A stretch of DNA of 64,000 nt from a virus (IMGVR_UViG_3300020048_000063:34804-98803), one strand, 5' to 3'; numbered from the stretch's first letter, positions 5,279 to 61,978 are shown. The notes: generated by a model not told the origin, from the letters alone. Numbers and translations are program-made.

Positions 5279-5279
5279 T

Positions 5280-5447: not shown

Positions 5448-5544
5448 TTTTTTATTTCGTGATAATTATTTTATATTTGAGAAGATTAATTTTTAATTTT
5501 TTAAAACAAAACCATATATTTTTACTATATAGTGGTTCTAAATT

Positions 5545-7625: not shown

Positions 7626-9284
7626 ATGTTAGATTTCTATAAACACGTAATTCCTGGTCAAATGCACGAAAAGCTAACAGAAGCTATCGTAGCAATGATG
7701 GCAACTGGTAATTTACCTTACTATGGTGAATTTGCTTTGTTCATCAACTTTTATGAATCAAAAAACAATCCTTATATTCCAACCGCAGGTGTTAATGTTA
7801 CATCTGCTGGTATGAATTTTTATTGGGATCGCAAGTTTATTGATAGTCTTCCACAACCTGAAATCAATTTTCTTTTAATTCACGAAGAATTTCACATCCT
7901 TTTTGATCACATCAAGAGAAGTGTAGGATATGATGCAAGGTCTGCCAATATTGTACAGGATATGATTATCAATCAGATTATTCATGATGAAATTATGAAA
8001 CAACAGGGACTTGGTACGGGTCCTAAACCTTTCATTGATACTCCAAAAGATATGTTCAAAAAAAATAGTGCATTATTTATTCCAAAAGAATATAAAGGCG
8101 AAGCTATCTTTGAAGATTTATACGAATGGTTTGTCAACAAAAAAAGAGAGTGGCAAGAAAAAAATAAGGACAAAATTCAGCAAATGAGAAAAGAAGCGAA
8201 TAAATGTCCTAAATGTGGTACACCTATGGAAAGCGGTGAACCAGATCCAAATAAACAAGATAAGCAAGGTCAACCACAACCAGGTGACGGTGATGGTAAA
8301 GGAAAAGATAAACAGGACAAACAAGACGGTAAAGGTAAAGGTAAAGGTCAACAAGGTCAAGGTCAGCCACAACCAGGTCAAGGTCAACCAGGACAAGGTG
8401 GACAAGGTGGTGAACAAGAAAGTGACCAAGATGGTGACGGTGATGGCAACAGTCCAAATAAATGTCCTAATTGTGGTCATGAACACAGTAACAACAAATC
8501 TCGTCAGGGTCAGAAAGATACTGCTGGTAATGATAAATATGGCAAATATGGTAAGAATGATGCAGAAATGTACTCACTTGATACTATCTTTGAAGGTGAA
8601 GAAAGAGAAGAACAAAATACTCTTGACGCACACCTTGGTGATGATATTCCACAAGAACTTAAACGTGAAATCGTTGAGGGTATTATGACCAAACTTAAGA
8701 ACCGTGGTTTAACATCTGGTGATGTTGAAGCAATTCTTAATAAACTTCGTAAAACTAAAAAGGACTATCTTAAAGAAATCAAAAGAACTATGAGTAATCA
8801 TATCTTTGGTTCAAAGAAAGAAAAAACCATTGTTCGTCCTAACCGTAGAGGTATTGCCGGATTAAAAGGTAGTAAGAAATATAAGAATGAAATCAATGTT
8901 CTTCTTGATACATCAGGATCAATGGGTGGTGAATTTGAAAAAGTTCTTTCCTATATCTTCCAGAATGATATTCAAATGAACCTTATTCAATGTGATGCAC
9001 AAGTTCAACAAGTCCTTAAAATCAAGGATAAAAAACAACTTGAAAAAATGAAAATCCGTGGTCTTGGTGGTACAACACTTCAACCAGGTCTTGATTTTAT
9101 GTCCGATAAAAAGAACAAAATCAATATGTATAATACTGTAATTCTTACTGACGGTTATACAGACTCATTAAACTTCAAATTGATTAAGACTAAAACTCTT
9201 ATTCTTTCAACCGCTGAAAAATGTCCAATCGCATTTGATAATGGTAGAGTAAAACAAATCAATCACATAGGTAAACAGGATTAA
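7626..9284 (+). CDS. DUF2201-type metallopeptidase plus vWA domain protein
   Basis: HEEFH zincin motif; MIDAS DTSGSM, GGT and ILTDG; a Gly/Gln/Asp low-complexity insert between two CPxCG motifs. Confidence 0.88.
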   Translation: MLDFYKHVIPGQMHEKLTEAIVAMMATGNLPYYGEFALFINFYESKNNPYIPTAGVNVTSAGMNFYWDRKFIDSLPQPEINFLLIHEEFHILFDHIKRSVGYDARSANIVQDMIINQIIHDEIMKQQGLGTGPKPFIDTPKDMFKKNSALFIPKEYKGEAIFEDLYEWFVNKKREWQEKNKDKIQQMRKEANKCPKCGTPMESGEPDPNKQDKQGQPQPGDGDGKGKDKQDKQDGKGKGKGQQGQGQPQPGQGQPGQGGQGGEQESDQDGDGDGNSPNKCPNCGHEHSNNKSRQGQKDTAGNDKYGKYGKNDAEMYSLDTIFEGEEREEQNTLDAHLGDDIPQELKREIVEGIMTKLKNRGLTSGDVEAILNKLRKTKKDYLKEIKRTMSNHIFGSKKEKTIVRPNRRGIAGLKGSKKYKNEINVLLDTSGSMGGEFEKVLSYIFQNDIQMNLIQCDAQVQQVLKIKDKKQLEKMKIRGLGGTTLQPGLDFMSDKKNKINMYNTVILTDGYTDSLNFKLIKTKTLILSTAEKCPIAFDNGRVKQINHIGKQD

Positions 9285-9300
9285 ACCTGTTTACCTTTTT
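9269..9300 (+). terminator. Intrinsic terminator
   Basis: AGGTAAACAGG/CCTGTTTACCT hairpin followed by a T-run. Confidence 0.7.
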
Positions 9301-9311
9301 ATAAAGTAAAT

Positions 9312-9437
9312 ATGCACGGAAAAGTCAAAATAACCACCAATGGTAAAATTGCTATGTTGCGAGGCAAAATCTTTACTAAAAAAGGTGAAAAATTCATTGA
9401 AATAGATAATAAAATATACTTGTTAAAAAAAGTCTAA
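9312..9437 (+). CDS. Small hypothetical protein (41 aa, MHGKVKITTNGK...)
   Basis: Read directly from the sequence; fills the gap and stops just before the next ATG. Confidence 0.5.
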   Translation: MHGKVKITTNGKIAMLRGKIFTKKGEKFIEIDNKIYLLKKV

Positions 9438-9438
9438 C

Positions 9439-10482
9439 ATGAACAAGAAAAAAAATTTACTGAATTTATTTACGAAAGATATTTCGTACAATTATCATAT
9501 CATTAAAGTTGATGAACCAAAAGGTCATTTAATTTATTTAATGAAAAATGGTTCTAGTTTAGATACTGATACATTAGAATTCGCTCCAACCAAAATTGCA
9601 GAAGAATTAACTATGGAATGTAAAGTTGATATGGAAAAATTTGCACCTGCAATATTCTTTACTGATGAATATAATTCAGATGAATTAAAAGAAAAATTAA
9701 ATAATAAATTTTCAGAAACTCCTGAATTTTCAACTTTTATTGATTCTATTAAAGATGAATATAGAATTTTAGAAGTTAAAGACTCATTACTTTTCAAAAA
9801 AGATCCTCAAGCATATGAAGAATCAAAAAGAAAAGAATATGAAGATCATCAGAAGGAACTTTGGGACGAAATGATTGAACAACATAAAAACAAAAAACAA
9901 AACAGGGATAATGCCATTATGGCGTATGATAATGATTTGTTTAAATTGCTAAAAGAATATTTTGAAAGTATAATTGAATTTGAAAAAAGAGATTTTGCTC
10001 TTGACTCAGAACTTGAAAAAATAATTGGCAATCTAATTGATCCTGAAACATGGATAAAAATTAATGACCATCCTTTTGCCTGTAGAATTGAACCAATTTC
10101 TTTTGACGGAAAAGATAAACTTAATGTGTTCTTAACTGATAATAATGACTATTCTTATACAGCAACATTAAGATTTGATAAAACTGTTCTTATAACAGAA
10201 AATATTATCAGGATTAATAAAGAAGATGCTTTACCTAAATGTATGCCAGACTATGAATTTATTTCTAATTTATATGATGTTGATATAACATCTGTAAAAG
10301 ATTGGGAATTCAAAAATGACACAGATAGATTTGAATATGTAATTGACTATCTTGTTCCTATTTTCACCGAAGAAAAAAAGAAAAAAGAAGAGGAATTTGT
10401 TGCTAAAGCATTGAAGGAAATGGAAGAAGAAGAAAAAGAAGCAGAAGAAAAAGAAGCAGAAGATGAAAAAAACAATATATAA
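9439..10482 (+). CDS. Hypothetical acidic protein
   Basis: 347 aa ORF. Confidence 0.75.
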   Translation: MNKKKNLLNLFTKDISYNYHIIKVDEPKGHLIYLMKNGSSLDTDTLEFAPTKIAEELTMECKVDMEKFAPAIFFTDEYNSDELKEKLNNKFSETPEFSTFIDSIKDEYRILEVKDSLLFKKDPQAYEESKRKEYEDHQKELWDEMIEQHKNKKQNRDNAIMAYDNDLFKLLKEYFESIIEFEKRDFALDSELEKIIGNLIDPETWIKINDHPFACRIEPISFDGKDKLNVFLTDNNDYSYTATLRFDKTVLITENIIRINKEDALPKCMPDYEFISNLYDVDITSVKDWEFKNDTDRFEYVIDYLVPIFTEEKKKKEEEFVAKALKEMEEEEKEAEEKEAEDEKNNI

Positions 10483-10506
10483 TTTTTTTAATCCAATAAT
10501 TAATTA

Positions 10507-10590
10507 TACTTTTGTACTTCAAAGATGAAACAAACAAAATAAAAATAAAATCATTGAATTTTTTTATATCAAAAATAAATGATACATTTG
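10507..10590 (+). promoter_or_regulatory. Tandem early promoters (TACTTTTG, TACATTTG)
   Basis: TAnnTTTG at 10507-10514 and 10583-10590, each with an upstream T-run. Confidence 0.7.
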
Positions 10591-10626
10591 TAATCTGAAT
10601 TAAAAATTAAAACTAAAAAATAAATT

Positions 10627-11889
10627 ATGGCAGTAAAGAATGAAATTTCAAAGGGTATCAAATTTGACCCAGCTTCCAAATTCCCAAAAGGATTTGAATC
10701 TCTTTCTGATAGGGAGAGAAAATATTTCAAGATGATGAACGCAAAGAGCGGTGTTCTTTATATCACATCTGCACCTGGATATGCAAAATCAGCAATTATG
10801 AGGAATATTGCATATAAAATGGGTTATCAATATTTTGATATCCGATTATCAATGGTTGATGAAACTGACGTAGGATTGTTCCCAACTATTGACGAAGAAA
10901 TGATTGAAAACAAGAAAACCAGGATGCTATGCCACGTTGCACCTAAATGGGCTTATATGGCAAACACAGCACCTACTATTCTTCACTTTGAAGAGTTAAA
11001 CCGTTCCACACTTGCCGTTCGTAATGCCGCACTTCAGATGCTTCTTGAACGTGAAATTGGTGCATTCTTCAAATTTAATGATAATGTTATGATGTGTTCA
11101 TCAGGTAACCTTGGGGAAGAAGACGGTACTGATGTTGAAGAGTTTGACCAGGCACTTAACAACCGACTTATCCACATTGAGCACACTCTTCCTTATCCAG
11201 AATGGGTTGAACAATACGCAAATGATAATGTTTGCCCAGTTATTGTTCAGTTCTTAAAAACTCACACCGAGCACTATTACAAGAAACCTGATGAACGTAA
11301 TCAAAGGAATAAAGCTTATGCTACTCCTCGTTCTTGGACTTTCCTTTCTGATTATATTTTCAGAAACTTCGGTGAAATGGTTACCCGCCTTGACAATCAA
11401 GGAAAGGAAATGACCGATTCAAAAACTGGTGAAGTTCTTCTTTTCAAGAAATTTCCAAGCATCCGTACCTGGATTAATGATATCAAAGAAATCGGACACG
11501 GTTATGTTGGAGCATCTAATGCCCGCTTCATAAGGTATTGTGAAGATACTCTCAAGATTACTCTTGATGATGTTCTTAGCAGATTTGATGAAATTGAAGA
11601 CGATATTAAAAACTTCAACCGAGACAAGAAATCAGAACTTCTTGCCAATATGAAAGAACGTAAAATTTCACAGTTGAAGGTTAAAGAACAAGAAAACCTT
11701 GCAAGGTTCCTTTGCACAATTTCAGATGATGAAATCGTTGGTTACTTGTTACACGTACTTGATGTTGAATACACCTTGTCCGATGATACTAAGGACAATA
11801 AAGCAGCAGAAAAATTCCTTGCTGATAAGAGGTTCAACAAATTCCGTGATGCCATTATGAAACACGTTGATGATGAAGGTGATAAATAA
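10627..11889 (+). CDS. MoxR/AAA_5-like ATPase
   Basis: Walker A variant SAPGYAKS, DIRLS, Walker B variant LHFEELNR, ALNNR arginine finger, TPRSW. Confidence 0.88.
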   Translation: MAVKNEISKGIKFDPASKFPKGFESLSDRERKYFKMMNAKSGVLYITSAPGYAKSAIMRNIAYKMGYQYFDIRLSMVDETDVGLFPTIDEEMIENKKTRMLCHVAPKWAYMANTAPTILHFEELNRSTLAVRNAALQMLLEREIGAFFKFNDNVMMCSSGNLGEEDGTDVEEFDQALNNRLIHIEHTLPYPEWVEQYANDNVCPVIVQFLKTHTEHYYKKPDERNQRNKAYATPRSWTFLSDYIFRNFGEMVTRLDNQGKEMTDSKTGEVLLFKKFPSIRTWINDIKEIGHGYVGASNARFIRYCEDTLKITLDDVLSRFDEIEDDIKNFNRDKKSELLANMKERKISQLKVKEQENLARFLCTISDDEIVGYLLHVLDVEYTLSDDTKDNKAAEKFLADKRFNKFRDAIMKHVDDEGDK

Positions 11890-33596: not shown

Positions 33597-33941
33597 TTAA
33601 ATAGGAAGACCTTGTAAATCAGATAGTTCAATAACGCTACCATTAAATGTAGTAGGTCCTAATTTTTGAATTGCGGATTTAACTTGATTTGAGCATTCTT
33701 CATAATTAATAAAACATACTGGTTTATCTGTTTCAAAATTAGATTGACGATAATATCCACCATTATTATCTGGTAATCCTAATATATCCTCAATACTAGA
33801 AGTACTACAATCCACAACTACACAATTAGAATCTATCCACGATTTAACTTGCATAGACGTTCTATCATATTCATTGAATATAATATATTTGTCATAACTA
33901 TCTGGTTTAGCAAAATTTTCAAATTTTTTGAGATGTTTCAT
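33597..33941 (-). CDS. Tagged hypothetical protein resembling an AAA ATPase fragment
   Basis: MKHLKKFENF N-terminus; EDILGLP and VKSAIQKL; late motif at 33959-33968. Confidence 0.6.
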   Translation of the reverse strand: MKHLKKFENFAKPDSYDKYIIFNEYDRTSMQVKSWIDSNCVVVDCSTSSIEDILGLPDNNGGYYRQSNFETDKPVCFINYEECSNQVKSAIQKLGPTTFNGSVIELSDLQGLPI

Positions 33942-34686: not shown

Positions 34687-35034
34687 ATGAGGCATATTAA
34701 AATATATGAAAATTATAAACCTAAGATACAAGAAGGTGATTATATAGTAATAAACATAAAAACAACATCTTATCAATTTGATGAATTTATAAATAATAAT
34801 ATAGGACAATTAATTTATATAGTACCATATAATACAGACTCATATTATATAAGATATGAAAACATACCAAAAATCATAAACCGCTGGTTTCATGGAAAAG
34901 ATAAATTATTACCAAGTGATCCAGACCTTGAAAATTCCAAATGTTTTAACATACATGCTATAAATATAATAGATTACGCAAAAGATAAAAGTGAATTAGA
35001 ATATATATTTGACTCTAAAAATTATAACTTATAA
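34687..35034 (+). CDS. Tagged hypothetical protein (MRHIKIYENY...KNYNL)
   Basis: Start reassigned to the ATG after late motif 34672-34681. Confidence 0.75.
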   Translation: MRHIKIYENYKPKIQEGDYIVINIKTTSYQFDEFINNNIGQLIYIVPYNTDSYYIRYENIPKIINRWFHGKDKLLPSDPDLENSKCFNIHAINIIDYAKDKSELEYIFDSKNYNL

Positions 35035-35056
35035 AAAATTCAAAATATAACTTATT

Positions 35057-35638
35057 ATGATAAAAAAATATTCAGAATATATTAAAGAATCAATTACTAC
35101 TGATATTACTGGTTTATTAGATAGTATAAATGACAAAAAAGTTGATTTTTATGCCATACATTTAGCAAATGATGAATTTACTAGTATGCCAATAGAAACC
35201 TTATATGATCATGCAGAATTTAATAAGCAGTTGTTCAAGGAAAATCTTAAAAAAGGTGAAATGGAAACTACAATGGACATTGAGAATTTTCTTAGAAAAG
35301 ATATTGACATGAAATTTTTCTTTCTTTATAGTAGAAATGAGACCATATTAAATAATCCCAATTTTTTGATTATACAATATTATAAAGATAATAAGTGGTA
35401 TCCTATTGAAATATATTCTATTAAAGGTTCAATTGAAAAATTCTACGAAAAATTAACTGCAAAAACAGTTGAACTTACACTCAATAATATAACCTATAGA
35501 TATGAAACTTCAAATTCTGGTAATAATTGGTTATTAGTAGATAAAGATAAAAAAACTGATCAATTCAAAGAAAACTTAAATACAAATAGTATTAAAGAAT
35601 TAATTCGTTCAGGTGCTAAATTAAAAATTATTGATTAA
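35057..35638 (+). CDS. Hypothetical protein with CTS-like N-terminus
   Basis: MIKKYSEYIKES. Confidence 0.75.
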   Translation: MIKKYSEYIKESITTDITGLLDSINDKKVDFYAIHLANDEFTSMPIETLYDHAEFNKQLFKENLKKGEMETTMDIENFLRKDIDMKFFFLYSRNETILNNPNFLIIQYYKDNKWYPIEIYSIKGSIEKFYEKLTAKTVELTLNNITYRYETSNSGNNWLLVDKDKKTDQFKENLNTNSIKELIRSGAKLKIID

Positions 35639-36012
35639 TGAAAAATTATAAACTTTTTTGTGAAAATAAGGTTGATGGATATTTTTACAAAATTCATTTC
35701 AATGATAAAAATGTTGAAGATTATTTAATATGTGACATAAATATGTGTGCTAAAAGTTACAGAACATTTGATATAAAATTTTTTGATTTAGTTAAAAATA
35801 GAAAAATTCAAAAAATATTATTTGGTTTCTATTTTAAAGATACTACTATACTTGCTGATATATTAGTTGGAGGTAACAGTGAAAAAGAAGAAAAATTATT
35901 AACAAATCCAACACTTAGAATATTAGCAGAAAACGAAGAACTTTATATTGATCTTTTAGAAATATTTGATCCTGATCATATCAAAGTTGCAATGAGAAAA
36001 TATAACCTATAA
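35638..36012 (+). CDS. Tagged hypothetical protein (MKNYKLFCEN...RKYNL)
   Basis: Both terminal motifs present. Confidence 0.75.
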   Translation: MKNYKLFCENKVDGYFYKIHFNDKNVEDYLICDINMCAKSYRTFDIKFFDLVKNRKIQKILFGFYFKDTTILADILVGGNSEKEEKLLTNPTLRILAENEELYIDLLEIFDPDHIKVAMRKYNL

Positions 36013-36088
36013 AAAATTGAATAAAAATATTAATATATAGAGATATAAAAAATTGAATAAAAATATTAATATATAGAGATATAAAAAA
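36008..36088 (+). repeat. 36-bp direct tandem duplication containing the late promoter motif
   Basis: TATAAAAAATTGAATAAAAATATTAATATATAGAGA at 36008-36043 and 36044-36079, plus a partial third start. Confidence 0.9.
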
Positions 36089-36101
36089 ATAAAGAAAATA
36101 T

Positions 36102-36476
36102 ATGAAACACATAAAAACATTTGAATCATTTGAAGGAACTGAACAAATAGATGAATGGTTCGGTCAAAAATTTATCACAGGACATGATAAGGGAGAAAAA
36201 GAGAATGCTAAAGCTGTTCTTATGGGTTCTATTGAAGATGCTATAGAAGAAATGGAAAGTGATTCTGAATCATATGCACATGATGATACAGAAACTTTAA
36301 GACAAGATTTAATGACATTAGCGAAACAAGATAACTATAGAGGTAGAATTGAAAAAAGAACTTCCAGAGAAAGTGGACTTATAAATATAATTTATGTACC
36401 ACAAGCAACAGGTTTACAAAATTTAGGTTCTGGTGCAGCAGCAGGTACAGGAACAAAATTAATGGGTAGATATTAA
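36102..36476 (+). CDS. Hypothetical protein with CTS-like N-terminus
   Basis: MKHIKTFESF; Gly/Ala-rich C-terminus. Confidence 0.75.
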   Translation: MKHIKTFESFEGTEQIDEWFGQKFITGHDKGEKENAKAVLMGSIEDAIEEMESDSESYAHDDTETLRQDLMTLAKQDNYRGRIEKRTSRESGLINIIYVPQATGLQNLGSGAAAGTGTKLMGRY

Positions 36477-36490
36477 AATACAAATTAATT

Positions 36491-36530
36491 AAACAAAAAA
36501 AACAAGTGAAATCACTTGTTTTTTTGTTTT
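36491..36530. terminator. Bidirectional terminator
   Basis: AACAAGTGA-aa-TCACTTGTT hairpin with A/T tails between convergent genes. Confidence 0.8.
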
Positions 36531-36970
36531 AAAATTTCTAACTCTATAGGCAACAGAGAATCTATTGAATTTGAACTTATCCTATCTAAAATATTATCCT
36601 TTGTTATATTATACTCAATATAACTATTTAATATAGTATTATTATTTTCCTCTGAATATAACTCGAAAAAGTTTTTATCACTATTAATAAAATCAATAAT
36701 ATTATCAACCCTTCCAAATTTAATTAACATTTTATGCTTCCTGAAAAATTCAATTAATTTTGCAACTTTATAATCATCTACAAAAGTAAGATAAATTGAT
36801 TTATCATCAATATCAAGACCAGTAATGGCATCACTATCCTCTGGTTCTAAAAATTGAGAGACATTTTCTACAAATTCTTTTTCTAATTCTGGATTATTTC
36901 TTACTGTAATATGATACAAATCATTTGCAATATTTGTTGTTTTTTTGTTCACGAAGTCCATTATGAGCAT
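36512..36970 (-). CDS. Hypothetical protein with C-terminal DUF6576-like helix pair
   Basis: DNILDRISSNSIDSLLPIELEIL; early promoter at 37007-37014. Confidence 0.6.
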   Translation of the reverse strand: MLIMDFVNKKTTNIANDLYHITVRNNPELEKEFVENVSQFLEPEDSDAITGLDIDDKSIYLTFVDDYKVAKLIEFFRKHKMLIKFGRVDNIIDFINSDKNFFELYSEENNNTILNSYIEYNITKDNILDRISSNSIDSLLPIELEILKQKNK

Positions 36971-37038
36971 ATTCTTTTCTCCTGTATATTAATTAGTTAC
37001 ATAAGCCAAAATTATAACTTTTTTACAAATAAAAAAAA

Positions 37039-37794
37039 TCAAATTTTAGATTTTATTTTTTTTAATGCTAAATCGCATTGTTTTCCACTTATTTCACTAC
37101 CAATAAAATTACATTTTTTTTCTATGGAACCTAAAGCTGTGGTACCAACACCCATGAAATTATCATAAACCAAATCTCCTTCATTACCATATAAATCAAT
37201 AAGTTTGACAACTAAATCTGTTGAAAAAGTTGCCTTATTTAAATCATTAGATCCATCGTTATTTTTAGCCTCAATATAATTATCAACTATTTGATAGTAT
37301 TTTTGACCTCTTTCAGAAACAGAAGTAACTAATTTAAACATCTTAAACGTTTTTACCTCTTTTTTTCTAGCAAAAACCCAAATAAATTCAAAAATCCTAT
37401 TAAGTCTATTATAGCTTGCTGGATGTGGCATAGACGTGTTCTTTTTCCAAAGTATAGTATCAACTATTTCCCAATTTGTATTTTCAACAATTTTAGATGC
37501 TAATTTGTACGGTAGAGATGGATTCTCAATAGAGTAACTAAAATTGTAAAGTACAACTCTATTTTCTTTCACAACTTTATCATAATTATTGAAAATCTCA
37601 ATTGTCCAATCTATATATTCAGATTCATTCATATTATCCCTGTATTGGTCATACTTTCCCATATCAGACGGTCCACCTTTTCTTTTTTTTGAAAAATTGT
37701 ATGGCGGTGAAGTAATCACCAAATCAACAAAATTTGGTGGCATATTATTCATAGTAGTTAAACAATCTTCATTGTATATCGTATTTATATTCAA
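37039..37794 (-). CDS. Beta-class amino (N4-C/N6-A) DNA methyltransferase
   Basis: ITSPPYN motif IV precedes DNFMGVGTT motif I. Confidence 0.9.
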   Translation of the reverse strand: MNINTIYNEDCLTTMNNMPPNFVDLVITSPPYNFSKKRKGGPSDMGKYDQYRDNMNESEYIDWTIEIFNNYDKVVKENRVVLYNFSYSIENPSLPYKLASKIVENTNWEIVDTILWKKNTSMPHPASYNRLNRIFEFIWVFARKKEVKTFKMFKLVTSVSERGQKYYQIVDNYIEAKNNDGSNDLNKATFSTDLVVKLIDLYGNEGDLVYDNFMGVGTTALGSIEKKCNFIGSEISGKQCDLALKKIKSKI

Positions 37795-37839
37795 TTTTCA
37801 TCTTATTTTTTTTATATATAGAAAAAAAGATTTCTAAAG

Positions 37840-38529
37840 ATGATAGTTTATAAAAAAATAAATGAATATTTAGATAATAAAGAAAAAGGTGAATATCAAC
37901 AATTGATTGACTATACCAAAATTTCAGATAATTTAAGTAATGACCATATTAAAGAATTGTGTAAAGAAGCAGAAAATAACAATTTTTATTCAATTTGTAT
38001 TTTACCAAATGCTATATCAACCGCGCATTCATTTTTAAAAGGTGTCAAAATAGTTGCATTAATAGATTTTCCAAAGGGAGAAAGTGATATAAAACAAAAA
38101 ATAAGTGAAATTGATGAAACTATTGTAAATGGTGCAAGTGAAGTTGATGTTGTTATTAATTATAAACTTGTTAAAGATCCTGAAGAACATGAAAAGTTAG
38201 AAAAAGAGATAAGAGAATTAACAGAATATTGCCATCGTGAAAGTATAATAGTTAAAATTATAATTGAAATGGGAGCATTAAATTATCAAGAATTAGAAAC
38301 TATCTGTAAAATGTGTAGTGAAAACAATGCTGATTTTATAATGACTTCAACTGGAAAATTACCAAAAGACGATCCATTTGAAACAAAAGTTGAAAAGGTA
38401 AAATTTATGAGAAAAATATTACCAGATGAAATGAAAATTAAATTTTCTGGTGGTATTAGAACTATAGAACAAATCAAAGAATTAAAACCACTTGTTGATA
38501 GAATCGGCACAAGTGTAATTCCACAGTAA
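37840..38529 (+). CDS. deoC: Deoxyribose-phosphate aldolase-like protein (Schiff-base Lys replaced by Met)
   Basis: IDYT, DFPKG, GASEVDVVIN, VKIIIE, ADFIMTSTG, IKFSGGIRT, RIGTS. Confidence 0.85.
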   Translation: MIVYKKINEYLDNKEKGEYQQLIDYTKISDNLSNDHIKELCKEAENNNFYSICILPNAISTAHSFLKGVKIVALIDFPKGESDIKQKISEIDETIVNGASEVDVVINYKLVKDPEEHEKLEKEIRELTEYCHRESIIVKIIIEMGALNYQELETICKMCSENNADFIMTSTGKLPKDDPFETKVEKVKFMRKILPDEMKIKFSGGIRTIEQIKELKPLVDRIGTSVIPQ

Positions 38530-38531
38530 TT

Positions 38532-39014
38532 ATGAAATATTTAAAACTATTTGAAAGTAAAAGAGATGTAGTAGAGAATCAATTAATGAAAATAATTATA
38601 TTTGAAGAAAAAGGATTTGATAGTTATTTATATAAAAATTTTTATAAAGATAAATCTTTTGGAAACTTATATACTATTAATTTTGTAAATGATGATAATT
38701 TCACACCACTAACAGCGGCAGTTTATTATGAAAGAACTGAAATTTTAGAAAAACTTATAAAATTTGGTGCAAATGTAAATTATACAAATGAAAATGGTGA
38801 AACTCCATTAATGGTAGCAGCAACAGAAAACAACTTAGATATGTTAAGGATATTGACTGATAACGGTGCAGATTGGAATAAAAGAAATATAAGTGGAAAT
38901 GATTTTTTTGATTGTTTATTTGACGCTGAGTATGAACAGATACTTATAGAAGAATATCCGAAAAAATATGAAGATTATATTATAAAAAAAGATGCAAAAA
39001 AGTATAATTTATGA
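38532..39014 (+). CDS. Ankyrin repeat protein, dual-tagged (MKYLKLFES...KKYNL)
   Basis: TPLTAAV..LIKFGANVN, GETPLMVA..GADWN. Confidence 0.85.
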   Translation: MKYLKLFESKRDVVENQLMKIIIFEEKGFDSYLYKNFYKDKSFGNLYTINFVNDDNFTPLTAAVYYERTEILEKLIKFGANVNYTNENGETPLMVAATENNLDMLRILTDNGADWNKRNISGNDFFDCLFDAEYEQILIEEYPKKYEDYIIKKDAKKYNL

Positions 39015-39394
39015 AACATCTAAAATTATATGAAGAAACATTTCCAGTTCCAACAGAAGAAGAATTAGAAAAATATGATATCAAAGTTGGGAATTATGTC
39101 ATTGCAAATGAAAATTTTTTCAATTCAATTAGAAATCCATATTTTATTAATGAGTTGATTACTAAAGAAATAGGAAAAGTAGATAAAATTTTTATTAGCA
39201 ATAAGGGATATAGAAATGAGCAGGTTTATTGTAGTGTTCGGTATACTAATATACCAGAAAGTATTTTAAAGCATATTAGTAATAAACCAGCCACGTTTAT
39301 ACATTCTATTAGGATTGATGATCTGAGAAAAGTATCACCAGAGGAATTTGAAAAGTATCAATTATCAAAAGTCGCAAATAAATATAACTTGTAA
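39011..39394 (+). CDS. Tagged hypothetical protein (MKHLKLYEE...NKYNL)
   Basis: Both terminal motifs; similar in layout to 34687-35034. Confidence 0.75.
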   Translation: MKHLKLYEETFPVPTEEELEKYDIKVGNYVIANENFFNSIRNPYFINELITKEIGKVDKIFISNKGYRNEQVYCSVRYTNIPESILKHISNKPATFIHSIRIDDLRKVSPEEFEKYQLSKVANKYNL

Positions 39395-39422
39395 TTTTTT
39401 TATTAAAATAAAAACAATATCT

Positions 39423-39761
39423 TTGATAACAATTTATAAAAGTTTTATGGAATCCAATCTTTCAAATGATTTAAAATCATATGCTGAATATCTTTTAGAT
39501 AAATATATAAAATCTCCGAACTCAACAGAAGATAGTGGATTTTATCTTAGACTAAAACAATTTTGTGAAGAAGGTAGAATCAAAGGAATACTCAGTAAAA
39601 ATGACAAGGTTACAACAAAAATTGATATATTAAATATATGTGGTAATGACTTAAGAAAAGTTTTAGGAGTTGACAATGATACATTTGAAGATTTTCAATT
39701 AAGAAGATATAATCCAAATGAATATAAATTGCAAAAGGATGTAAAAAAATATAATTTATGA
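39423..39761 (+). CDS. Hypothetical protein ending KKYNL (start TTG 39423 or ATG 39447)
   Basis: The TTG start gives a CTS-like MITIYKSFMES but overlaps an early promoter motif (TATCTTTG, 39418-39425). Confidence 0.65.
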   Translation: MITIYKSFMESNLSNDLKSYAEYLLDKYIKSPNSTEDSGFYLRLKQFCEEGRIKGILSKNDKVTTKIDILNICGNDLRKVLGVDNDTFEDFQLRRYNPNEYKLQKDVKKYNL

Positions 39762-40405
39762 TAACACATTTTAACAAATTTCTTATGAACGAATCACTTA
39801 ATCATTTTGATCTCAGTAAACTAGTCACAATTGTTAATATAAAACAGGATAATGAAGGTAACTGGATTTATACAACAAAAGATAATAGACAACTTACTTT
39901 ACCAAAAGAACAAGCAAATAAAATAACCTTAGTAGATAGTAAACTTGCAGATTTTGTAAATAATGGGCATCCAATTACAAAGTATTTTGAACTTGATTTA
40001 GATACTATCATTTATGCCGCAAATTTTGCTGTTGATGCAATAGCAATGAGAGAAGGTAGAGTATATTTAATTGAACGAAAAGATGGTCGCGGTTGGGCAA
40101 TTCCTGGTGGATTTATTGATGCCGGTGAAACACCAGAACAAGCAGCATTAAGGGAATTACAAGAAGAAACATTAGCAAAACCAAAAGATATTAAGAGTGT
40201 TGAATCATTAGGAATGTTTAAAACTAGTGATCCAAGAGAAATTGATTTTTTCTCTTTTATATTTGTTTTTCAAATTAAAGCTTCTGCTGAATTAAAATTT
40301 GCTGATGATGCTACAAATGGAAAATGGTTACTATTAAGTAGGGCAATTAAAAGCAAATTAGCTTTTCCACATCACAACGATTTTCTAAAAAAAGTTACTT
40401 ATTAA
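39758..40405 (+). CDS. NUDIX hydrolase with CTS-like N-terminus
   Basis: Nudix box GGFIDAGETPEQAALRELQEET, DPR, ADDA. Confidence 0.88.
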   Translation: MITHFNKFLMNESLNHFDLSKLVTIVNIKQDNEGNWIYTTKDNRQLTLPKEQANKITLVDSKLADFVNNGHPITKYFELDLDTIIYAANFAVDAIAMREGRVYLIERKDGRGWAIPGGFIDAGETPEQAALRELQEETLAKPKDIKSVESLGMFKTSDPREIDFFSFIFVFQIKASAELKFADDATNGKWLLLSRAIKSKLAFPHHNDFLKKVTY

Positions 40406-41075
40406 TTTTCTCTTTTTCCCTTTTCATTGGTAATGGTGGAGATATTTTAAATTCTCTATTTAAATATCTTCTAAATTCATTTTCAACATAATAAGGTGGT
40501 ACAACTTTATTATCATTCTCTTTTTCCATTTTAGTTGCTAACATATATGCAAAACTTATAATATGTTCTCTTCTCACCATATTTATTAATCCTTTTTCTA
40601 CAGCAAAGGATTTATAAAACCAATCATCATAAAAATGCACAAACTCACCCTCACTAATATCAATTGCTTTTATTATTATACCTGACATAAAACTTTTATA
40701 ATCAACTTTCTTCACAAGCATAATAGGTACTAAAATTTTTATTAATGCCCTTGAACCACCTAAAAATTGTGAAACTACCCATAAAGGAAGATATATAAAA
40801 GCTAATGCTAAAGGAATTGCTCTATGAAGAAACTTAAAAATACCTTGTAAATATTCTCTATTTTCCTTAAATTTTATAGCATCTGAGTGAAGTGCCTTTA
40901 ATACTCCGAATGTTAGTTTTTTACCACTTGCTAATTGATTATATAATTTCCCTTGCTTTGCTACTTCTTTAATCTTTTTTAATTCTTCATCACTTTTAAA
41001 ACTAAAAATATTGGAAATATCAATAGAAGTAAAGTCATATATATCATCAACAAATTCATAAAGTTTTATAATCAT
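40395..41075 (-). CDS. Hypothetical protein with hydrophobic hairpin
   Basis: MIIKLYEF start; late motif at 41081-41090. Confidence 0.7.
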   Translation of the reverse strand: MIIKLYEFVDDIYDFTSIDISNIFSFKSDEELKKIKEVAKQGKLYNQLASGKKLTFGVLKALHSDAIKFKENREYLQGIFKFLHRAIPLALAFIYLPLWVVSQFLGGSRALIKILVPIMLVKKVDYKSFMSGIIIKAIDISEGEFVHFYDDWFYKSFAVEKGLINMVRREHIISFAYMLATKMEKENDNKVVPPYYVENEFRRYLNREFKISPPLPMKREKEKINK

Positions 41076-41094
41076 AGCATTATATATAAAAAAA

Positions 41095-41922
41095 TTATAA
41101 TGATTTTAACATAGCAATTAAATTAGGTTGAGGACTCATGTCAGTCTTATCCGTTCTTATATTAGTATGAGTCCACACACCTGGATAACCATTCATTGTT
41201 AATGGATTATACTCAAATGCTGTTCTACCAATTGATTGTATTGCATATGCAGTATTTTCTCCCCAACTACCATCTTCTGATAAAGGTTTACCGTTTTTAC
41301 CAACAAATCCATTTTTATTCAACCATTTTTGTTGATCCATAATTGATAAATTATTTGGCATAATTAATGTCTCCTTTTTTATCCATTCAACCAAGCCCAT
41401 TTTTAAATTTATACCAAATTTAGTACCTAAAGAAACTAATAATGTCCTCAAACTATCTAATTGTTTATCTGTATATTTATGATAATACTTAAATCCTCTG
41501 AAAGGTTTTGATAATTCAACAACCTGATCTGCAGGCACAGGAGTATTCACATAAGTCATAAATTGTCCAGTTTTTGATAATGTTAAATTTCCATAATTAC
41601 AGACTTCTATTCCTATTGAAATTTTATCAAATAAACCATTGGTACCTTTTACACCAAGATGGAATGCCCATTGACTTTCAGGAAAACATCTAACAACAAC
41701 ACCATCCCAAGTAATATCATTATCTCTGGTACTCTTACCGCCTATAACATATGGTACAGCAATTTTTCTAGTTGAGCCATCTTCATTTTTATCTTTGTTC
41801 CAACTTTGTACAACCCAATCAGGTCTATGACTACCAGCAGTATGATGTAAATAAATTATACTTTTTTTAATATCATTAGAGAAGTATTCGTCAGAATCTA
41901 AAAAAATATCTTTAATATTCAT
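41095..41922 (-). CDS. N-acetylmuramoyl-L-alanine amidase (Amidase_2), putative endolysin
   Basis: LHHTAG, WAFHLG, SIGIEVCN, THTNIRTDKTD; inserted peptidoglycan-binding-like segment DGSWGENT. Confidence 0.85.
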   Translation of the reverse strand: MNIKDIFLDSDEYFSNDIKKSIIYLHHTAGSHRPDWVVQSWNKDKNEDGSTRKIAVPYVIGGKSTRDNDITWDGVVVRCFPESQWAFHLGVKGTNGLFDKISIGIEVCNYGNLTLSKTGQFMTYVNTPVPADQVVELSKPFRGFKYYHKYTDKQLDSLRTLLVSLGTKFGINLKMGLVEWIKKETLIMPNNLSIMDQQKWLNKNGFVGKNGKPLSEDGSWGENTAYAIQSIGRTAFEYNPLTMNGYPGVWTHTNIRTDKTDMSPQPNLIAMLKSL

Positions 41923-41933
41923 ATTTTTATTTA

Positions 41934-43538
41934 TTATTTTTTGACATTACTATTAACATATAAAAATGTTGGCGGCTGAATAGTATTGTTATCCGTTATA
42001 TCATTATCATAGAGTTGTTCGTTTTTTAATGTATTTAAATCTTGTGTATTTTTATACACCCTTTCACCTTTTAATTTATGGTCAACATCTACATCCTCAT
42101 ACAATAATGTTGATTCCATTCTTCTTTTTATTGTTATATTTTTATAAACTTCTTCATTATTTAATGAAGTGATTTTATCTTCTGAATTTTTAAATAGTGA
42201 TTCATTATGTAATAAAGTTTTCTTATCGGGAACATTATCAAAAACAGTTTCTCCCTTTAGTGTTTTATTTGAATCTTTATTTCTATAAACATTTTCATTT
42301 TCCAATCTATTTGTAGAATCAATATTTTGATAAACAAACTCTTTTGGTGTATGACGGCTAACATTTACATTTTTATAAACTTCTTCGTTTTCTAATAAAT
42401 TATTTGAATCTTTATTTCTATAGACATTTTCATTTTCTAATTTGTTTGTAGAATCAATATTTTGATAAACAAATTCATTTGGTGTATGACGATTGACATT
42501 TATATTTTTATAAACATTCTCATCTTTCAAAGCATTATTAGAATCTTTGTTTTTATACGCATACTCATTTTCTAATCTATTTGTAGAATCAATGTTTTTA
42601 TAAACATTTTCATCTTTTAAAATATTATTAGAATCTTTATTCTTGTAGACATCTTCATTTTCTAATTTATTATTAGAATCTTTATTTTTATAGACATCTT
42701 CATTTTCTAATCTATTTGTAGAGTCAATGTTTTTATAAACTTCTTCATTATTTAAAGTAGAATTATCTCCAACATTATCATAAACTTTTTCACCATTCAA
42801 TGTAATTACATTATCAACATTATCATAAACTGTTTCACCATTTAATGTACCATATTCTTCAACATTAACATATACGGTCTCACCTGCTAGTGTACCATTT
42901 TCTTTTATATTATCATAAACCGTTTCTCCATTTAAAGTATTATTATCGTTAACATTTGTAAAAAGATTCTCACCATTTAAAACATTATTCACTCCTACAC
43001 CATAAAAAAGATTTTCATCATTTAAAGTATTATTTACTCCTATACCATAAAAAAGAGTCTGATTTTCTGGTGTCTTATTTCGCTGTCTATCTTTTTCTTT
43101 TACATTATCATAATCAACCATATCAGTAAATGGTGGATTATATACAACTTCACCGTGTAATTTATTATTTATTCCTATACCATTGTAAACAACTTCACCG
43201 TTTGGTGTTTTATTTCTTGCATCTTTTTCAGTAGGATTATCATAATCCATCATAGGAGTAAAAGGAGGATTATAAACAACTTCACCTTTTGGTGTTTTAT
43301 TTCTATCCAACCCAAACTCATTTTTCAAATCATCATAATCAATAAAATTAGTATTACCATAAAGTTTACTACCATTTAATGTTTTGCCTCTTTTTTTATC
43401 TTTTTCACTTAAATTATCATAATCAACAAATATTGTTTTTCCATAAAGAACTTGTCCTTCTGGTGTTTTATTTAATAGTGCGTGATTATTAACAACTATT
43501 CTATCAATTACATTTGAATTTTTAGTATCATTAGACAT
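41934..43538 (-). CDS. Repeat protein with 15-aa LxxExVYxN repeats
   Basis: More than 20 tandem units such as LENEDVYKNKDSNNK. Confidence 0.8.
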   Translation of the reverse strand: MSNDTKNSNVIDRIVVNNHALLNKTPEGQVLYGKTIFVDYDNLSEKDKKRGKTLNGSKLYGNTNFIDYDDLKNEFGLDRNKTPKGEVVYNPPFTPMMDYDNPTEKDARNKTPNGEVVYNGIGINNKLHGEVVYNPPFTDMVDYDNVKEKDRQRNKTPENQTLFYGIGVNNTLNDENLFYGVGVNNVLNGENLFTNVNDNNTLNGETVYDNIKENGTLAGETVYVNVEEYGTLNGETVYDNVDNVITLNGEKVYDNVGDNSTLNNEEVYKNIDSTNRLENEDVYKNKDSNNKLENEDVYKNKDSNNILKDENVYKNIDSTNRLENEYAYKNKDSNNALKDENVYKNINVNRHTPNEFVYQNIDSTNKLENENVYRNKDSNNLLENEEVYKNVNVSRHTPKEFVYQNIDSTNRLENENVYRNKDSNKTLKGETVFDNVPDKKTLLHNESLFKNSEDKITSLNNEEVYKNITIKRRMESTLLYEDVDVDHKLKGERVYKNTQDLNTLKNEQLYDNDITDNNTIQPPTFLYVNSNVKK

Positions 43539-43984
43539 TAACTAGATCTTCTTTTTTTAATCATCTCCTGAATATATTGATCAGCAGGCAATTTAATATC
43601 TGGGTCTTTTCTATTAACCAATTCTTCTTTCGTATTATCTTTTATACCTTCTTTTTCATTTATTTCTTTAACAATAGATGCTAAATATGTTTCTGGACTT
43701 ACTTTTGAATCTTCATTTGTATAAACTAATCCATATATACTTTCATCATTGAAAATATAAAATTCATTATTAGGCAAAGTAAAATCCTGATAAAACATTA
43801 ATTTACCTATTGTACCATATGTTAATATTTGTTTACCTGTCATATTTAAATATTTTAACATAAAAGCATCTTTTATATGAATTTTTTCTTCCTTCAAAGA
43901 AATTAAATTTATACCTAAATCCATTTTGAATATAGGTATTTTTCTAAATATATTTAACATTTGGGTGTTTGCTACTACTATCAT
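43538..43984 (-). CDS. Hypothetical protein
   Basis: 148 aa, in a late operon. Confidence 0.7.
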   Translation of the reverse strand: MIVVANTQMLNIFRKIPIFKMDLGINLISLKEEKIHIKDAFMLKYLNMTGKQILTYGTIGKLMFYQDFTLPNNEFYIFNDESIYGLVYTNEDSKVSPETYLASIVKEINEKEGIKDNTKEELVNRKDPDIKLPADQYIQEMIKKRRSS

Positions 43985-44550
43985 TGTTCGTGAATATCAT
44001 CTTTTAAATCATTCTCATCTACACCAGTATCATCAGATTTATCTTTTAATTGACCTAATTTATCAATCATAAAATCCTCTTTAATATCCTCAACTTTTAC
44101 TTCCTCTACCAATTCTCCTTTTTCTTTATTATTCTCATCAAATTGATGAATTTTTAAAAGAACTTTATTAATTTCTAAATTTTTACCCTCGGCTGGGGGA
44201 GTTGCGGCTGGAGCTTCACCCTGACCTTGAGCAGGAGGTTGTGTTTGTTGAGTTTGTGCTTGTGCTTCATCACCTTTCATTTCATCAAGTCTTATCATAA
44301 AAATAACTCTATATCTCATTGATGTTCCTTCTTCTTCTTCACCTTCTTTTATTGGTTCTGTAAAATTAAATATTAGGAATTTTTCCATTGGATTATAATT
44401 AGAAATTTGAATATCTCCATCCAATTCACAACCCTGAGCACCTAATGAACCATCTGTAAACCATTTTTCAATTTGTGCTTCTAATTCCTTAAAAAAAACT
44501 GAAATTTTATAATCAGCTGATTCAACGTATTCTTCAAATAATTTCCTCAT
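43981..44550 (-). CDS. Hypothetical acidic protein with CTS-like N-terminus
   Basis: MRKLFEEYVES; Q/P/A-rich linker; late motif at 44572-44581. Confidence 0.75.
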   Translation of the reverse strand: MRKLFEEYVESADYKISVFFKELEAQIEKWFTDGSLGAQGCELDGDIQISNYNPMEKFLIFNFTEPIKEGEEEEGTSMRYRVIFMIRLDEMKGDEAQAQTQQTQPPAQGQGEAPAATPPAEGKNLEINKVLLKIHQFDENNKEKGELVEEVKVEDIKEDFMIDKLGQLKDKSDDTGVDENDLKDDIHEQ

Positions 44551-44625
44551 AATTGTTAATTAATTTTACTCTATATATAAAAATCATGTTCATTAAAATC
44601 AAAAATGAAAATTAATATATATTAT

Positions 44626-45342
44626 ATGAAAATTTTAAAAGAATCAGAAGTCTCATCAGGAAATGCGAGCGGAAAAGCAGGTGTAGCATCACTTCCGTTC
44701 AATAAAGGATATTATTCTTCTGGTAACAATGGATCACCAGGTATAGAATTTACTCCAAAAGGTGAACCAAGTTTCAAAACATACAAAAGTATGAAGCATT
44801 CAAAAAAGAATGTTAAAGAAAAAAGAGAAAAAATGAAAAAATTTAGAGAATTCGCAAAAGAATCAGTAAACTACGAAAATCTAGAAATTAGAGGAATCAA
44901 TTTCATTGATGATAATGAAGGTTATGTTAAAATAGAAATGGATGGTAAACAAAAAATGGAGCATTTTAGTATTAATCACGCTGGGTATGTTCATTTTCAA
45001 CTTTTTCATCCAGAACAAAATTATTATCAATTAGTTCAATATGTATATGAACAAATGCCAGAATGCAATTTAAAAACTAAAGTTCTTGATAATTATGAAG
45101 AAGTTTTTCAGTTAGAAACATTAACCGAAGAAGCTTCTGCAACTATGGGTAATACAGGTGGTATGGGTGCTGTTGTGTCGGCACAACCATCAAGTACACC
45201 AGGTGATGTTGCAGGTGGAACAAAAGGTTCTGGTGATATTGGACAAACACTTGGTACTTATACTAAACCAGGAATAAAAATGAAAAAGGATAAAAAGAAA
45301 AAAAGAAAAATAGAATCTTTTGATAATTTTAAAATAAAATAA
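44626..45342 (+). CDS. Hypothetical protein with repeated CTS-like motifs
   Basis: Start reassigned to follow late motif 44612-44621; MKILKES, MKKFREFAKES, KIESFDNF. Confidence 0.7.
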   Translation: MKILKESEVSSGNASGKAGVASLPFNKGYYSSGNNGSPGIEFTPKGEPSFKTYKSMKHSKKNVKEKREKMKKFREFAKESVNYENLEIRGINFIDDNEGYVKIEMDGKQKMEHFSINHAGYVHFQLFHPEQNYYQLVQYVYEQMPECNLKTKVLDNYEEVFQLETLTEEASATMGNTGGMGAVVSAQPSSTPGDVAGGTKGSGDIGQTLGTYTKPGIKMKKDKKKKRKIESFDNFKIK

Positions 45343-45351
45343 AAAATCCAT

Positions 45352-46101
45352 ATGAAAATAGAAAGATTTAATCAAATAAATGAGTCTTCTCATAACGAAT
45401 TTTTGAATCATTATAGTGATGATATACAGAAATCTATCATTTTATTAGTAAAATTAAAAAATTTTTTCATTGAAGCTGAACATAACGATGAAAATATTAC
45501 TGATGAACTTGGTGAACTTGGTGAAAAAATAGAAAATAGACTTAGTGTTTATGATAAAAATGTACCATCAAAAATAGATGAATGGATTTATGATACTCCA
45601 ACACCAGATGAAATTGTTGAATTCGCAATAAGAAACCAATATAAATGGGGAACTGAACCGCAAATGGTATTATACGCAATTGAAGATTATGCAACAGAAT
45701 GTGGAATATATCCTGATGATGAGGATGATATTGATGAAAATGAGAATGAAGATGAATTTTATGAAGGCTCTTTTCAATTTGATAAAGAAGAAGTTGATGA
45801 ACCAAAAAATGAGAATATTGAATTATTTGAAAATTTTGAAACCAGTTATACTTATGAATGTAGTGGTTCACCTAGTCCAACATTTAGAGTTAAAGCAGAC
45901 TTTTTTGAATTTATGGCTAATCATGGATTTAAACACACCACATTAACCAAAAAAACTAACATGCTAATTGTGGAAGATAAAGATATGGGTACTTTAAAAT
46001 GTCAAAAAGCACAAAAATATGGTGTACCAATTTATACATATAGAGAAGCAAAGAAAAAGGTTATAGCATTAGCAGAAGACATGGAAAAATATAATTTATA
46101 A
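45352..46101 (+). CDS. Dual-tagged protein with C-terminal BRCT-like domain
   Basis: MKIERFNQINES...LTKKTNMLIV..KCQKAQKYGVPIYTY...EKYNL. Confidence 0.75.
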   Translation: MKIERFNQINESSHNEFLNHYSDDIQKSIILLVKLKNFFIEAEHNDENITDELGELGEKIENRLSVYDKNVPSKIDEWIYDTPTPDEIVEFAIRNQYKWGTEPQMVLYAIEDYATECGIYPDDEDDIDENENEDEFYEGSFQFDKEEVDEPKNENIELFENFETSYTYECSGSPSPTFRVKADFFEFMANHGFKHTTLTKKTNMLIVEDKDMGTLKCQKAQKYGVPIYTYREAKKKVIALAEDMEKYNL

Positions 46102-46104
46102 CTT

Positions 46105-46473
46105 GTGAGATACATAAAAACATACGAAAAATTTTTCATAAAAAAAGTCTGGAACAAAATACTAGATCCAGAAAGTGATTTAAAAGAAATTGAGGCATCT
46201 TGGAATATGCATGAAATCCCTGTGTTACAAAAATATGGAAAAATAACTGAAGATACATTTGAATATAACTCTGTTATGAGTAATCTTTCAATAAAAATTA
46301 AAAAAATATATGTGGAAGAAGCATTTGGATATACACCAGCAACATTTAAGGTAAATGTTAGCAATGATAGAGGTATATATCGTAAAACATTTACAGATTT
46401 TAATGATGTAATAAAACTTATGGAAAAATTGATTCCAAAAGAAGAAATAGACGCAAATAAATATAATCTATAA
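46105..46473 (+). CDS. Tagged hypothetical protein (MRYIKTYEKF...NKYNL)
   Basis: GTG start; both terminal motifs. Confidence 0.75.
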   Translation: MRYIKTYEKFFIKKVWNKILDPESDLKEIEASWNMHEIPVLQKYGKITEDTFEYNSVMSNLSIKIKKIYVEEAFGYTPATFKVNVSNDRGIYRKTFTDFNDVIKLMEKLIPKEEIDANKYNL

Positions 46474-46523: not shown

Positions 46524-46829
46524 ATGGAAAAAGTAGATAAAGTTACATATGAAATGTCGGGTCCTCCACCGAAATGGTTATGGTATCATAAAGCAGACTT
46601 TGAGAGTGATATGTTGAAATGGGGATATTCTCATACCACATTGAATAAAAATACTGATATGTTAATTGTAGAATCAAAAGATTTAGGTACATTAAAATGT
46701 CAGAAAGCAGAAAAATACGGTATACCTATATACACTTATAAAGAAGCATTTGATAGAAAAGAAAAATTATACACAAGAGTAATTAGGAAAAAAAGATTAG
46801 ATAATATAAATAAAAACAGAGAAGAATAA
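46524..46829 (+). CDS. Stand-alone BRCT-like domain protein
   Basis: Paralog of the 45352 C-terminus; LigA-type KTDxLIV..K..KAxxLGIPI pattern; ends IRKKRLDNI. Confidence 0.75.
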   Translation: MEKVDKVTYEMSGPPPKWLWYHKADFESDMLKWGYSHTTLNKNTDMLIVESKDLGTLKCQKAEKYGIPIYTYKEAFDRKEKLYTRVIRKKRLDNINKNREE

Positions 46830-61975: not shown

Positions 61976-61978
61976 TCT

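Follow-up and report, generated by a model that had tools for sequence, protein, structure and literature searches.

We analyzed a 64,000-nt stretch of an uncultivated viral contig (IMGVR_UViG_3300020048_000063, bases 34,804-98,803 of 98,803 bp, 28% G+C), hereafter called the window, in which positions are counted from the first letter unless genome coordinates are named. Many small proteins encoded by this AT-rich, T4-like megaphage lineage, most of them orphans, carry a two-ended peptide label, which is real, strongly selected and portable. It consists of a leader of the MKxLKxFE type at the N-terminus (the N-tag) and a KYNL-type end at the C-terminus (the C-tag).

A C-terminal peptide conserved as a peptide

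The original prediction had pointed to seven window open reading frames (ORFs) with ends of this type, and all seven are found where it had placed them (Table 1). Over the entire contig, with 129 non-overlapping ORFs and 30,339 residues, 16 ORFs (about one in eight) end in [KN]YN[LI], and KYNL occurs 14 times at the C-terminus and twice internally, as against 0.0034 terminal occurrences expected from composition; the enrichment thus reaches beyond the window. The codons of the seven window ORFs vary as claimed, with AAT/AAC for N, TTA/CTA/TTG for L, AAA/AAG for K and TAA/TGA as the stop; TAC, ATA (Ile) and TAG are also seen at the tag codons and stop in the rest of the contig, and among the 16 carriers all tag positions change synonymously (TAT/TAC, AAT/AAC, TTA/CTA/TTG and three stops). 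Such variation indicates that the peptide is conserved, rather than a DNA or RNA site, and the view that selection acts on the peptide is further upheld by orthologues at 32-64% identity, which keep both ends.

In 71 carriers from three genomes, K occupies position -4 in 68, F/Y position -3 and N position -2 in all 71, and L/I position -1 in 70. The consensus is [DN][TAS]xK[FY]N[LI], always at the free carboxyl end. The C-tag extends beyond four residues: counted from position -14, the tail of these carriers runs acidic, acidic, hydrophobic, E/K, L/I, any residue, K, D/N, T/A/S, N/K, K, F/Y, N, L/I.

The nearest named relatives of the contig are the published “uncultured phage” genomes LR756502, LR745206, LR756504 and LR756501, 634-735 kb in length; together with the CheckV completeness of 14-33% for the contig and its IMG/VR relatives, this indicates that the contig is a piece of a megaphage of about 700 kb. 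Clade relatives were reached via a conserved 588-aa gene, and the C-tag is present on 42 of the 378 ORFs of the 235-kb contig G002, mostly as KFN[IL] (11 internal copies), and on 13 of the 176 ORFs of the 147-kb contig G001 (4 internal copies). The stop codon of the C-tag overlaps the next ATG in five of the 16 carriers of our contig, and a search of IMG/VR with a 26-nt degenerate pattern, in which K[FY]N[LI]-stop overlaps ATG-K-[HY]-x-K, retrieved such junctions between a C-tag and an N-tag from at least 119 stretches, with up to 9 per stretch, and contigs of up to 330 kb, among the matches listed. A literature search on KYNL and phage returned nothing relevant, and no published description of the tag was found. 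A profile of the last 42 residues had no match among 5.8 billion proteins, being too short for significance, and yielded chance rows only against PDB sequences.

The N-terminal leader and its pairing with the C-tag

The N-tag consensus is MK[HY][LI]Kx[FY]E, with the variants MIT.[FY]..[FY] and MKK[YF][DN][QE][FY]I.E. Its MKxLKxFE core is N-terminal 44 times, compared with 0.08 expected, and synonymous change is seen in the N-terminal codons as well. A leader of this type had been ascribed to six of the seven window ORFs, and to the seventh if translated from a TTG. This was too generous: the strict leader is found in four (34687, MRHIKIYE; 38532, MKYLKLFE; 39011, MKHLKLYE; and, with GTG as the start codon, 46105, MRYIKTYE), while the eighth residue of 35638 is Cys (MKNYKLFC), 45352 begins with the variant MKIERFNQ, and 39423 has a leader of another type. 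From its TTG start the latter reads MITIYKSF, a second leader type which is frequent on KFN[IL] carriers of relatives, as are MIT.F-type leaders on the C-tag carriers of G002; the ATG at 39447 is an alternative start.

The two ends are strongly coupled on the contig, where 11 ORFs have both, two the leader only, five the C-tag only and 111 neither (Fisher p = 1e-10). Pairing, as foreseen, is thus the rule on this contig, but it is not obligate, as the N-tag occurs without KYNL in related 634-642-kb phages. In the four published huge phage genomes the C-tag is not enriched (15-26 pattern matches, versus 8-22 in the reversed control), and the profile of one orthologue family of carriers, A1 (see below), yields a match of N-tag size only; the strict N-tag occurs 16 times in each of three of these genomes, versus none in the control. 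In LR756502, a start of the MKxLKxFE type is present on 27 of 933 ORFs with heterogeneous C-termini, and only three ORFs end in [YF]N[LI]. The presence of the N-tag in these phages, in which KYNL is not enriched, suggests that the C-tag is a later, lineage-specific addition.

About 11 contig ORFs, mostly basic small proteins and none of them with the N-tag, have a second tag, [ILQ]RKxKLxK[IL], close to their C-termini. The LR756502 version of this tag comprises about 50 ORFs ending in R[DN]xKLxx[LI]GI, ILK or ILN. Judging from these distributions, the N-tag and the second tag appear to be old and widespread, and KYNL/KFNI a later addition in one sub-lineage, placed almost only on N-tagged proteins.

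Portable ends on differing bodies

The statement that the bodies of the carriers differ is mostly right, the exception being a small subgroup (4 of 16 carriers) with a weak common core. After trimming of the ends, the ORF at genome position 16318 matches window ORFs 34687 (E = 1e-4) and 39011 (E = 0.007), and the ORF at genome position 31462 matches 39011 (E = 0.007). These links, and the presence of ankyrin and BRCT-like cores among the carriers, do not amount to the full-length homology of a simple paralogue family. Pfam and PHROGs searches with the carriers of the contig and its relatives recovered only ankyrin, BRCT-like, DUF4240 and DUF7487 matches, and tblastn with carrier 39011 found no match in cultured phages.

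The original prediction had also supposed that the phage swaps bodies between common ends. Indeed, the BRCT-like domain of 45352, which matches phrog_3869, the C-terminal part of NAD-dependent DNA ligase, is 63% identical over 68 aa to that of its neighbor 46524, with the match stopping exactly at the tails: 45352 has an N-tagged extension and ends in EDMEKYNL, while 46524 has no N-tag and carries the second tag (IRKKRLDNI) instead. Paralogues with such different tails indicate that the tags are portable, and N-tags are common to unrelated cores. Nine of the 12 residues of the leader of 35057, MIKKYSEYIKES, recur on an unrelated G002 protein ending in KFNL, and ORF 44605 has its first 90 residues in common with a G002 protein, the other half of which differs and ends in KKYNL.

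In the A1 family, founded on 46105, the 14 metagenomic orthologues are 32-64% identical, and M1, K5, E8, P111, K119, N121 and L122 are among the invariant or nearly invariant positions. AlphaFold, run on this alignment, gives a predicted local distance difference test (pLDDT) score of about 90 for residues 30-110, with residues 1-24 under 50-62 and the last ~10 residues at 48-71; both ends are predicted to be helical. The low confidence of these tails, which are not packed on the core, indicates that the ends behave as linear motifs. A second family, GDYV, gave an unusable model (pLDDT 56). In fold searches with the A1 model, Foldseek found nothing at E <= 0.001, and the best VIA Z, 6.7, was within noise; small immunity and inhibitor proteins appeared among the middling rows and were discounted. 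The ESM Atlas returned unnamed viral clusters only (score 0.75). The label consists of two portable linear peptide tags on tails of low AlphaFold confidence.

Links to the phage head

The suggestion that the N-terminus resembles a capsid-targeting signal is supported by its likeness to the T4 capsid-targeting sequence (CTS), and by relatives which combine near-copies of the CTS with a T4-type portal and head-maturation protease. In T4, the CTS is by itself enough to bring diverse internal proteins into the scaffolding core, and is their only common feature (PMC3012670). The N-terminus of T4 IPIII reads MKTYQEFIAE, and the near-copies in the clade are MKTYNQFIEA, MKKFDEFIKE, MKKYDQFINE and MIKKYSEYIKE, the last of them in the window; the CTS-like core is N-terminal 9 times, compared with 0.02 expected. 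The system recalls T4 IPI-III in having a short N-terminal peptide as the sole common feature of diverse small proteins, and in the pattern M-K-x-hydrophobic-x-x-aromatic. It differs in that the dominant leader, MKxLKxFE, is another dialect, that carriers number from tens to an extrapolated hundred or more per genome rather than the handful of T4, and that T4 has no C-terminal partner tag.

The head module lies off this contig, and the data on it come from the relatives G005 and G003. The gene order in G005 runs from the head-closure protein to the portal (phrog_213, E = 9.5e-59), then to a homing endonuclease encoded on the opposite strand, a protein of 267 aa, a double-tagged one of 102 aa (N-tag and KYNL end) and, last, the head maturation protease (phrog_207, E = 7.6e-31; Pfam Peptidase_S77 at E = 5e-7, below the family cut-off). 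The protease (L059:17146-19488) is fused to a scaffold-like region with about 12 repeats of EY[ILV]AE[NH][LV]D, which number 12-14 across G005 and the LR7565xx phages (L065-L068). These repeats look like putative T4-type I-x-E cleavage sites, and the scaffold repeats and the CTS-like leaders have [FY]-I-x-E in common, which would be of the T4 cleavage-site type. The same small double-tagged gene is found downstream of the portal gene in G003, where the protease gene was not located. In T4, portal gene 20 and protease gene 21 flank the prohead core genes 67 and 68.

For the C-terminal end, a comparison is offered by encapsulins, in which C-terminal peptides are sufficient to load unrelated cargo into an HK97-fold shell via a pocket on its inner surface (PMC7355545). 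Both systems have a C-terminal peptide of about 10 residues conserved on unrelated proteins. The sequences differ, however, the last residue is not strictly needed in encapsulins, and encapsulin cargo genes adjoin the shell gene, whereas the carriers described here are dispersed, bar the portal-side gene in G005 and G003. The label resembles the T4 CTS at one end and, in its logic, encapsulin cargo peptides at the other.

We tentatively favor a role of the N-tag in targeting to the prohead core, with KYNL as a docking peptide peculiar to this lineage and dependent on a free carboxyl end, and would give this somewhat less than an even chance. The N-tag would be the version of the T4 CTS used by this lineage, docking the protein on the prohead scaffolding core, and would be clipped after the conserved Glu, probably by a gp21-type head protease. 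The C-tag would be a second docking peptide, gained later in one sub-lineage and read via the free C-terminus in the manner of encapsulin cargo-loading peptides; it would stay on the mature protein, and either hold cargo in the head or act after ejection into the next cell. Any small domain could thereby become cargo upon gaining both ends.

A more far-reaching version, which we consider rather improbable, is a proteome-wide sorting code, in which the N-tag loads tens to hundreds of small effectors per genome into the head, and KYNL survives maturation and, after ejection, docks the effectors on one hub of the newly infected cell or orders their exit. If true, phage-injected proteins would have their first translocation-signal system, on a scale like that of bacterial secretion-system effector repertoires. 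Poxvirus ankyrin/PRANC proteins and bacterial conflict adaptor domains use a common terminal module to couple variable bodies, ankyrins included, to one hub; unlike those modules, which are folded and span 50-100 residues, the tags are linear motifs of 8-13 residues.

Several observations weigh against packaging. The MKxLKxFE leaders fit [LIF]-[FY]-E in only about 8 of 13 cases, the others having Thr or Lys at P3, and the A1 family has Thr at P3 of the (L/I)-x-E rule. Carriers account for 7-12% of the ORFs, and we know of no packaged set of phage proteins as numerous; most carriers reside in arrays of small accessory genes outside the head module, and the promoter-like motif before carriers precedes every other kind of gene too. 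Related phages without the C-tag, which have a 63-70% identical protease-scaffold, have no small gene between portal and protease, and the presence of so similar a scaffold in these phages means that it cannot be the specific reader of the C-tag. The portal-protease slot also gathers homing endonucleases (Table 1). The isoelectric points of the carriers are mixed, with a median of 5.9, whereas T4 IPII and IPIII are basic. It should be kept in mind that these phages are uncultivated, and that the tagged proteins are known from their sequences.

Other possible readers and roles

The tags could instead be handles that dock small proteins, as clients, on a cytoplasmic phage machine for remodelling and processing, composed of an ATPase and a vWA-metallopeptidase. 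The partner of the free carboxylate of KYNL might then be the metal site of the vWA domain, or else the peptidase; this role we regard as rather unlikely. The module is present on the contig (Table 1), with the HEEFH and DTSGS motifs of the vWA-peptidase intact, and is 73-94% identical across the clade. The intervening gene for a 347-aa protein is kept in G001 and G002 (58-60% identity) and has no tblastn match in LR756502, which is without the C-tag and in which 25 kb separate the vWA-peptidase gene from the ATPase gene. Iyer et al. (2021, PMC7824862) describe the pair of a MoxR AAA+ ATPase and a metallopeptidase-vWA protein, found in group 2.2 jumbo phages, as an uncharacterised chaperone-peptidase, for which a role in processing phage proteins was proposed. 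The pair, highly conserved here, is nevertheless found in phages without the C-tag as well: four huge phages possess it (vWA-peptidase 44-49% and ATPase 39-50% identical), and the C-tag is not enriched in them. Moreover, ATPases of this family occur in more than 500 phage records, and no protein of the module is itself tagged. Subtraction of LR756502 from the shared clade genes leaves 124 ORFs, a number that does not single out a reader.

A degron is an unlikely alternative role for the C-tag, in which its basic-aromatic-Asn-aliphatic end, perhaps together with the N-tag, would mark accessory proteins for timed destruction by a terminus-reading host or phage protease, as ClpXP does with ssrA- or MuA-like ends. 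The tag requires an exact C-terminus and resides on a tail of low AlphaFold confidence, and its carriers are small, accessory and of many folds; in 2003 Flynn et al. reportedly found ClpX to recognise classes of motifs at either terminus. Tags of the ssrA and MuA type, and class II PDZ ligands (hydrophobic-x-hydrophobic-COOH), are portable and recognised via the free carboxyl. The C-tag shares with them the free carboxyl, hydrophobic residues at -1 and -3, the low-confidence tail and portability; it departs from every described class of such ligands in its invariant Asn at -2 and Lys at -4, and in its coupling to an N-tag. KYNL is not known to resemble any characterised degron class, there is no evident reason to destabilise 10% of a proteome, and the N-tag, to which the C-tag is tied, stands alone in sister clades. 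No match to a PDZ-type reader (PF13180, PDZ_2) was found in five clade fragments, which are 14-33% complete.

The coupling of the two ends and their predicted helices are also compatible with a clasp, in which amphipathic N- and C-segments pair within a carrier, or head to tail between carriers, with no outside reader, stabilising small domains or building a hetero-polymer. Lys-Asn isopeptide bonds use a trio of Lys, Glu and Asn, and a likeness of these to the invariant Lys and Glu of the N-terminal end and the Asn of the C-terminal end is speculative. AlphaFold, however, packs the ends neither together nor onto the core, both being of low confidence, and the N-tag is present without the C-tag in related phages, making the clasp quite improbable. 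Least credible of all, and largely refuted by the codon data, is that the ends are no protein signal, but a remnant of fast-diverging paralogues or an element acting as DNA or RNA, such as a TATAAT-like box in the KYN codons, a cassette recombination site or a device for translational coupling. Carriers are frequently in tandem, the five stop-start overlaps would suit coupling, TATAAT is contained in AAATATAAT, and one subgroup has a common core; yet all tag positions change synonymously, the carriers span ankyrin, BRCT-like and unrelated cores, 11 of the 16 stops have no overlapping start, and, where stop and start overlap, only 2 nt separate the box from the ATG, leaving no space for a promoter. 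Relatives have KFNI, with different DNA, in the same position. The readings at the DNA level (promoter box, recombination site, coupling and slippery A-run) were rejected because of codon variation and spacing.

Genomic surroundings

The contig codes for a ribonucleotide reductase, a DnaB-like helicase, a RecA/UvsX-like protein, RtcB, and a baseplate hub with OB and lysozyme-like domains, as well as for the metallopeptidase-vWA protein and the ATPase, whose distant homologues include MoxR-like proteins. The features of interest are collected in Table 1.

Table 1. Tagged genes, candidate reader and related features (window coordinates unless stated otherwise)
Feature	Coordinates	Strand	Size	Termini	Remarks
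C-tag carrier	34687..35034	+	115 aa	MRHIKIYENY...DSKNYNL	core weakly related to genome ORF 16318
C-tag carrier	35638..36012	+	124 aa	MKNYKLFCEN...AMRKYNL	orphan core
C-tag carrier	38532..39014	+	160 aa	MKYLKLFES...DAKKYNL	ankyrin repeats, Pfam Ank_4 E = 5e-19
C-tag carrier	39011..39394	+	127 aa	MKHLKLYEE...VANKYNL	46%-identical metagenomic homologue has MKYLKTFEE...KKYNL
C-tag carrier	39423..39761	+	112 aa from TTG	MITIYKSFME...DVKKYNL	alternative ATG 39447
C-tag carrier	45352..46101	+	249 aa	MKIERFNQ...DMEKYNL	C-terminal BRCT-like domain, phrog_3869 E = 2.5e-7
C-tag carrier, GTG start	46105..46473	+	122 aa	MRYIKTYEK...DANKYNL	first sequence of orthologue family A1
BRCT-like paralogue	46524..46829	+		no N-tag; ...IRKKRLDNI...	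second tag in place of KYNL
N-tag-only protein	33597..33941	-	114 aa	MKHLKKFENF	no KYNL end
N-tag-only protein	36102..36476	+	124 aa	MKHIKTFESF	no KYNL end
Protein with T4-CTS-like leader	35057..35638	+	193 aa	MIKKYSEYIKES	no C-tag; flanked by two C-tag carriers
Decayed N-tag gene	44626..45342	+		MKILKESEVSS	G002 homologue starts MKYLKAFESEVSS, ends KKYNL
Candidate reader module	7626..11889	+			metallopeptidase-vWA 7626-9284, clade-specific 347-aa protein 9439-10482, ATPase 10627-11889
Second-tag examples, window	31999-32421, 32402-32632, 46524-46829, 57643-57954, 13474-14079				
Second-tag examples, genome coordinates	5227-6041, 8819-9010				
Homing endonucleases in portal-protease gap	L059:14130-15716, L060:18159-19796	-			also in upstream regions of L066, L067

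A promoter-like motif, T[TA]ATATATA, occurs 56 times on the contig before all classes of genes (for example at 34673, 37812, 44613, 20600 and 3191), and stands at one of two distances from the ATG, either 13-17 nt, or near-leaderless, or 25-35 nt. The copy at 34673, TTAATATATA, has the ATG of carrier 34687 located 14 nt downstream, and the interval 36013-36101, upstream of the N-tag-only gene 36102, holds two tandem copies of a block of about 36 bp with a promoter-like motif in each (AAAAATTGAATAAAAATATTAATATATAGAGATAT). The true start of ORF 44605-45342 is probably Met8 (44626), 13 nt after the promoter-like motif at 44613, which gives the decayed leader MKILKESE, compared with MKYLKAFESE in the G002 homologue.

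The minus strand at 41934-43538 codes for a 534-aa protein built from a 13-14-residue repeat (N.L..E.VY.N) that recurs about 25 times, and the product of the adjoining 41095-41922 resembles a cell-wall amidase by eye. The repeat-protein locus and its two upstream genes are kept beside the C-tag arrays of G001 and G002 and have no tblastn match in LR756502. At the end of the window, two large ORFs on the minus strand (59135-63955; 946 and 658 aa) with Gly-rich, collagen-like ends, such as GPKGSPA, coincide with a rise in G+C to about 40%.

Implications

With a probability that we place a little short of one half, targeting related to packaging is a likelier explanation of the label than a tag for ATPase/vWA clients, a degron, a clasp or a non-protein element. 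If the tags are address labels, about one-tenth of the genes in widespread giant uncultivated phages would be flagged as one functional class, probably of exchangeable anti-host or accessory cargo, the function of which is almost wholly unassigned. The older N-tag and the C-tag of one sub-lineage provide a natural comparison set for finding the reader, and, again if the tags are addresses, this handle of 8 plus 4 residues could serve for fishing out the reader, for loading foreign proteins, and for sorting the dark matter of megaphage genomes.

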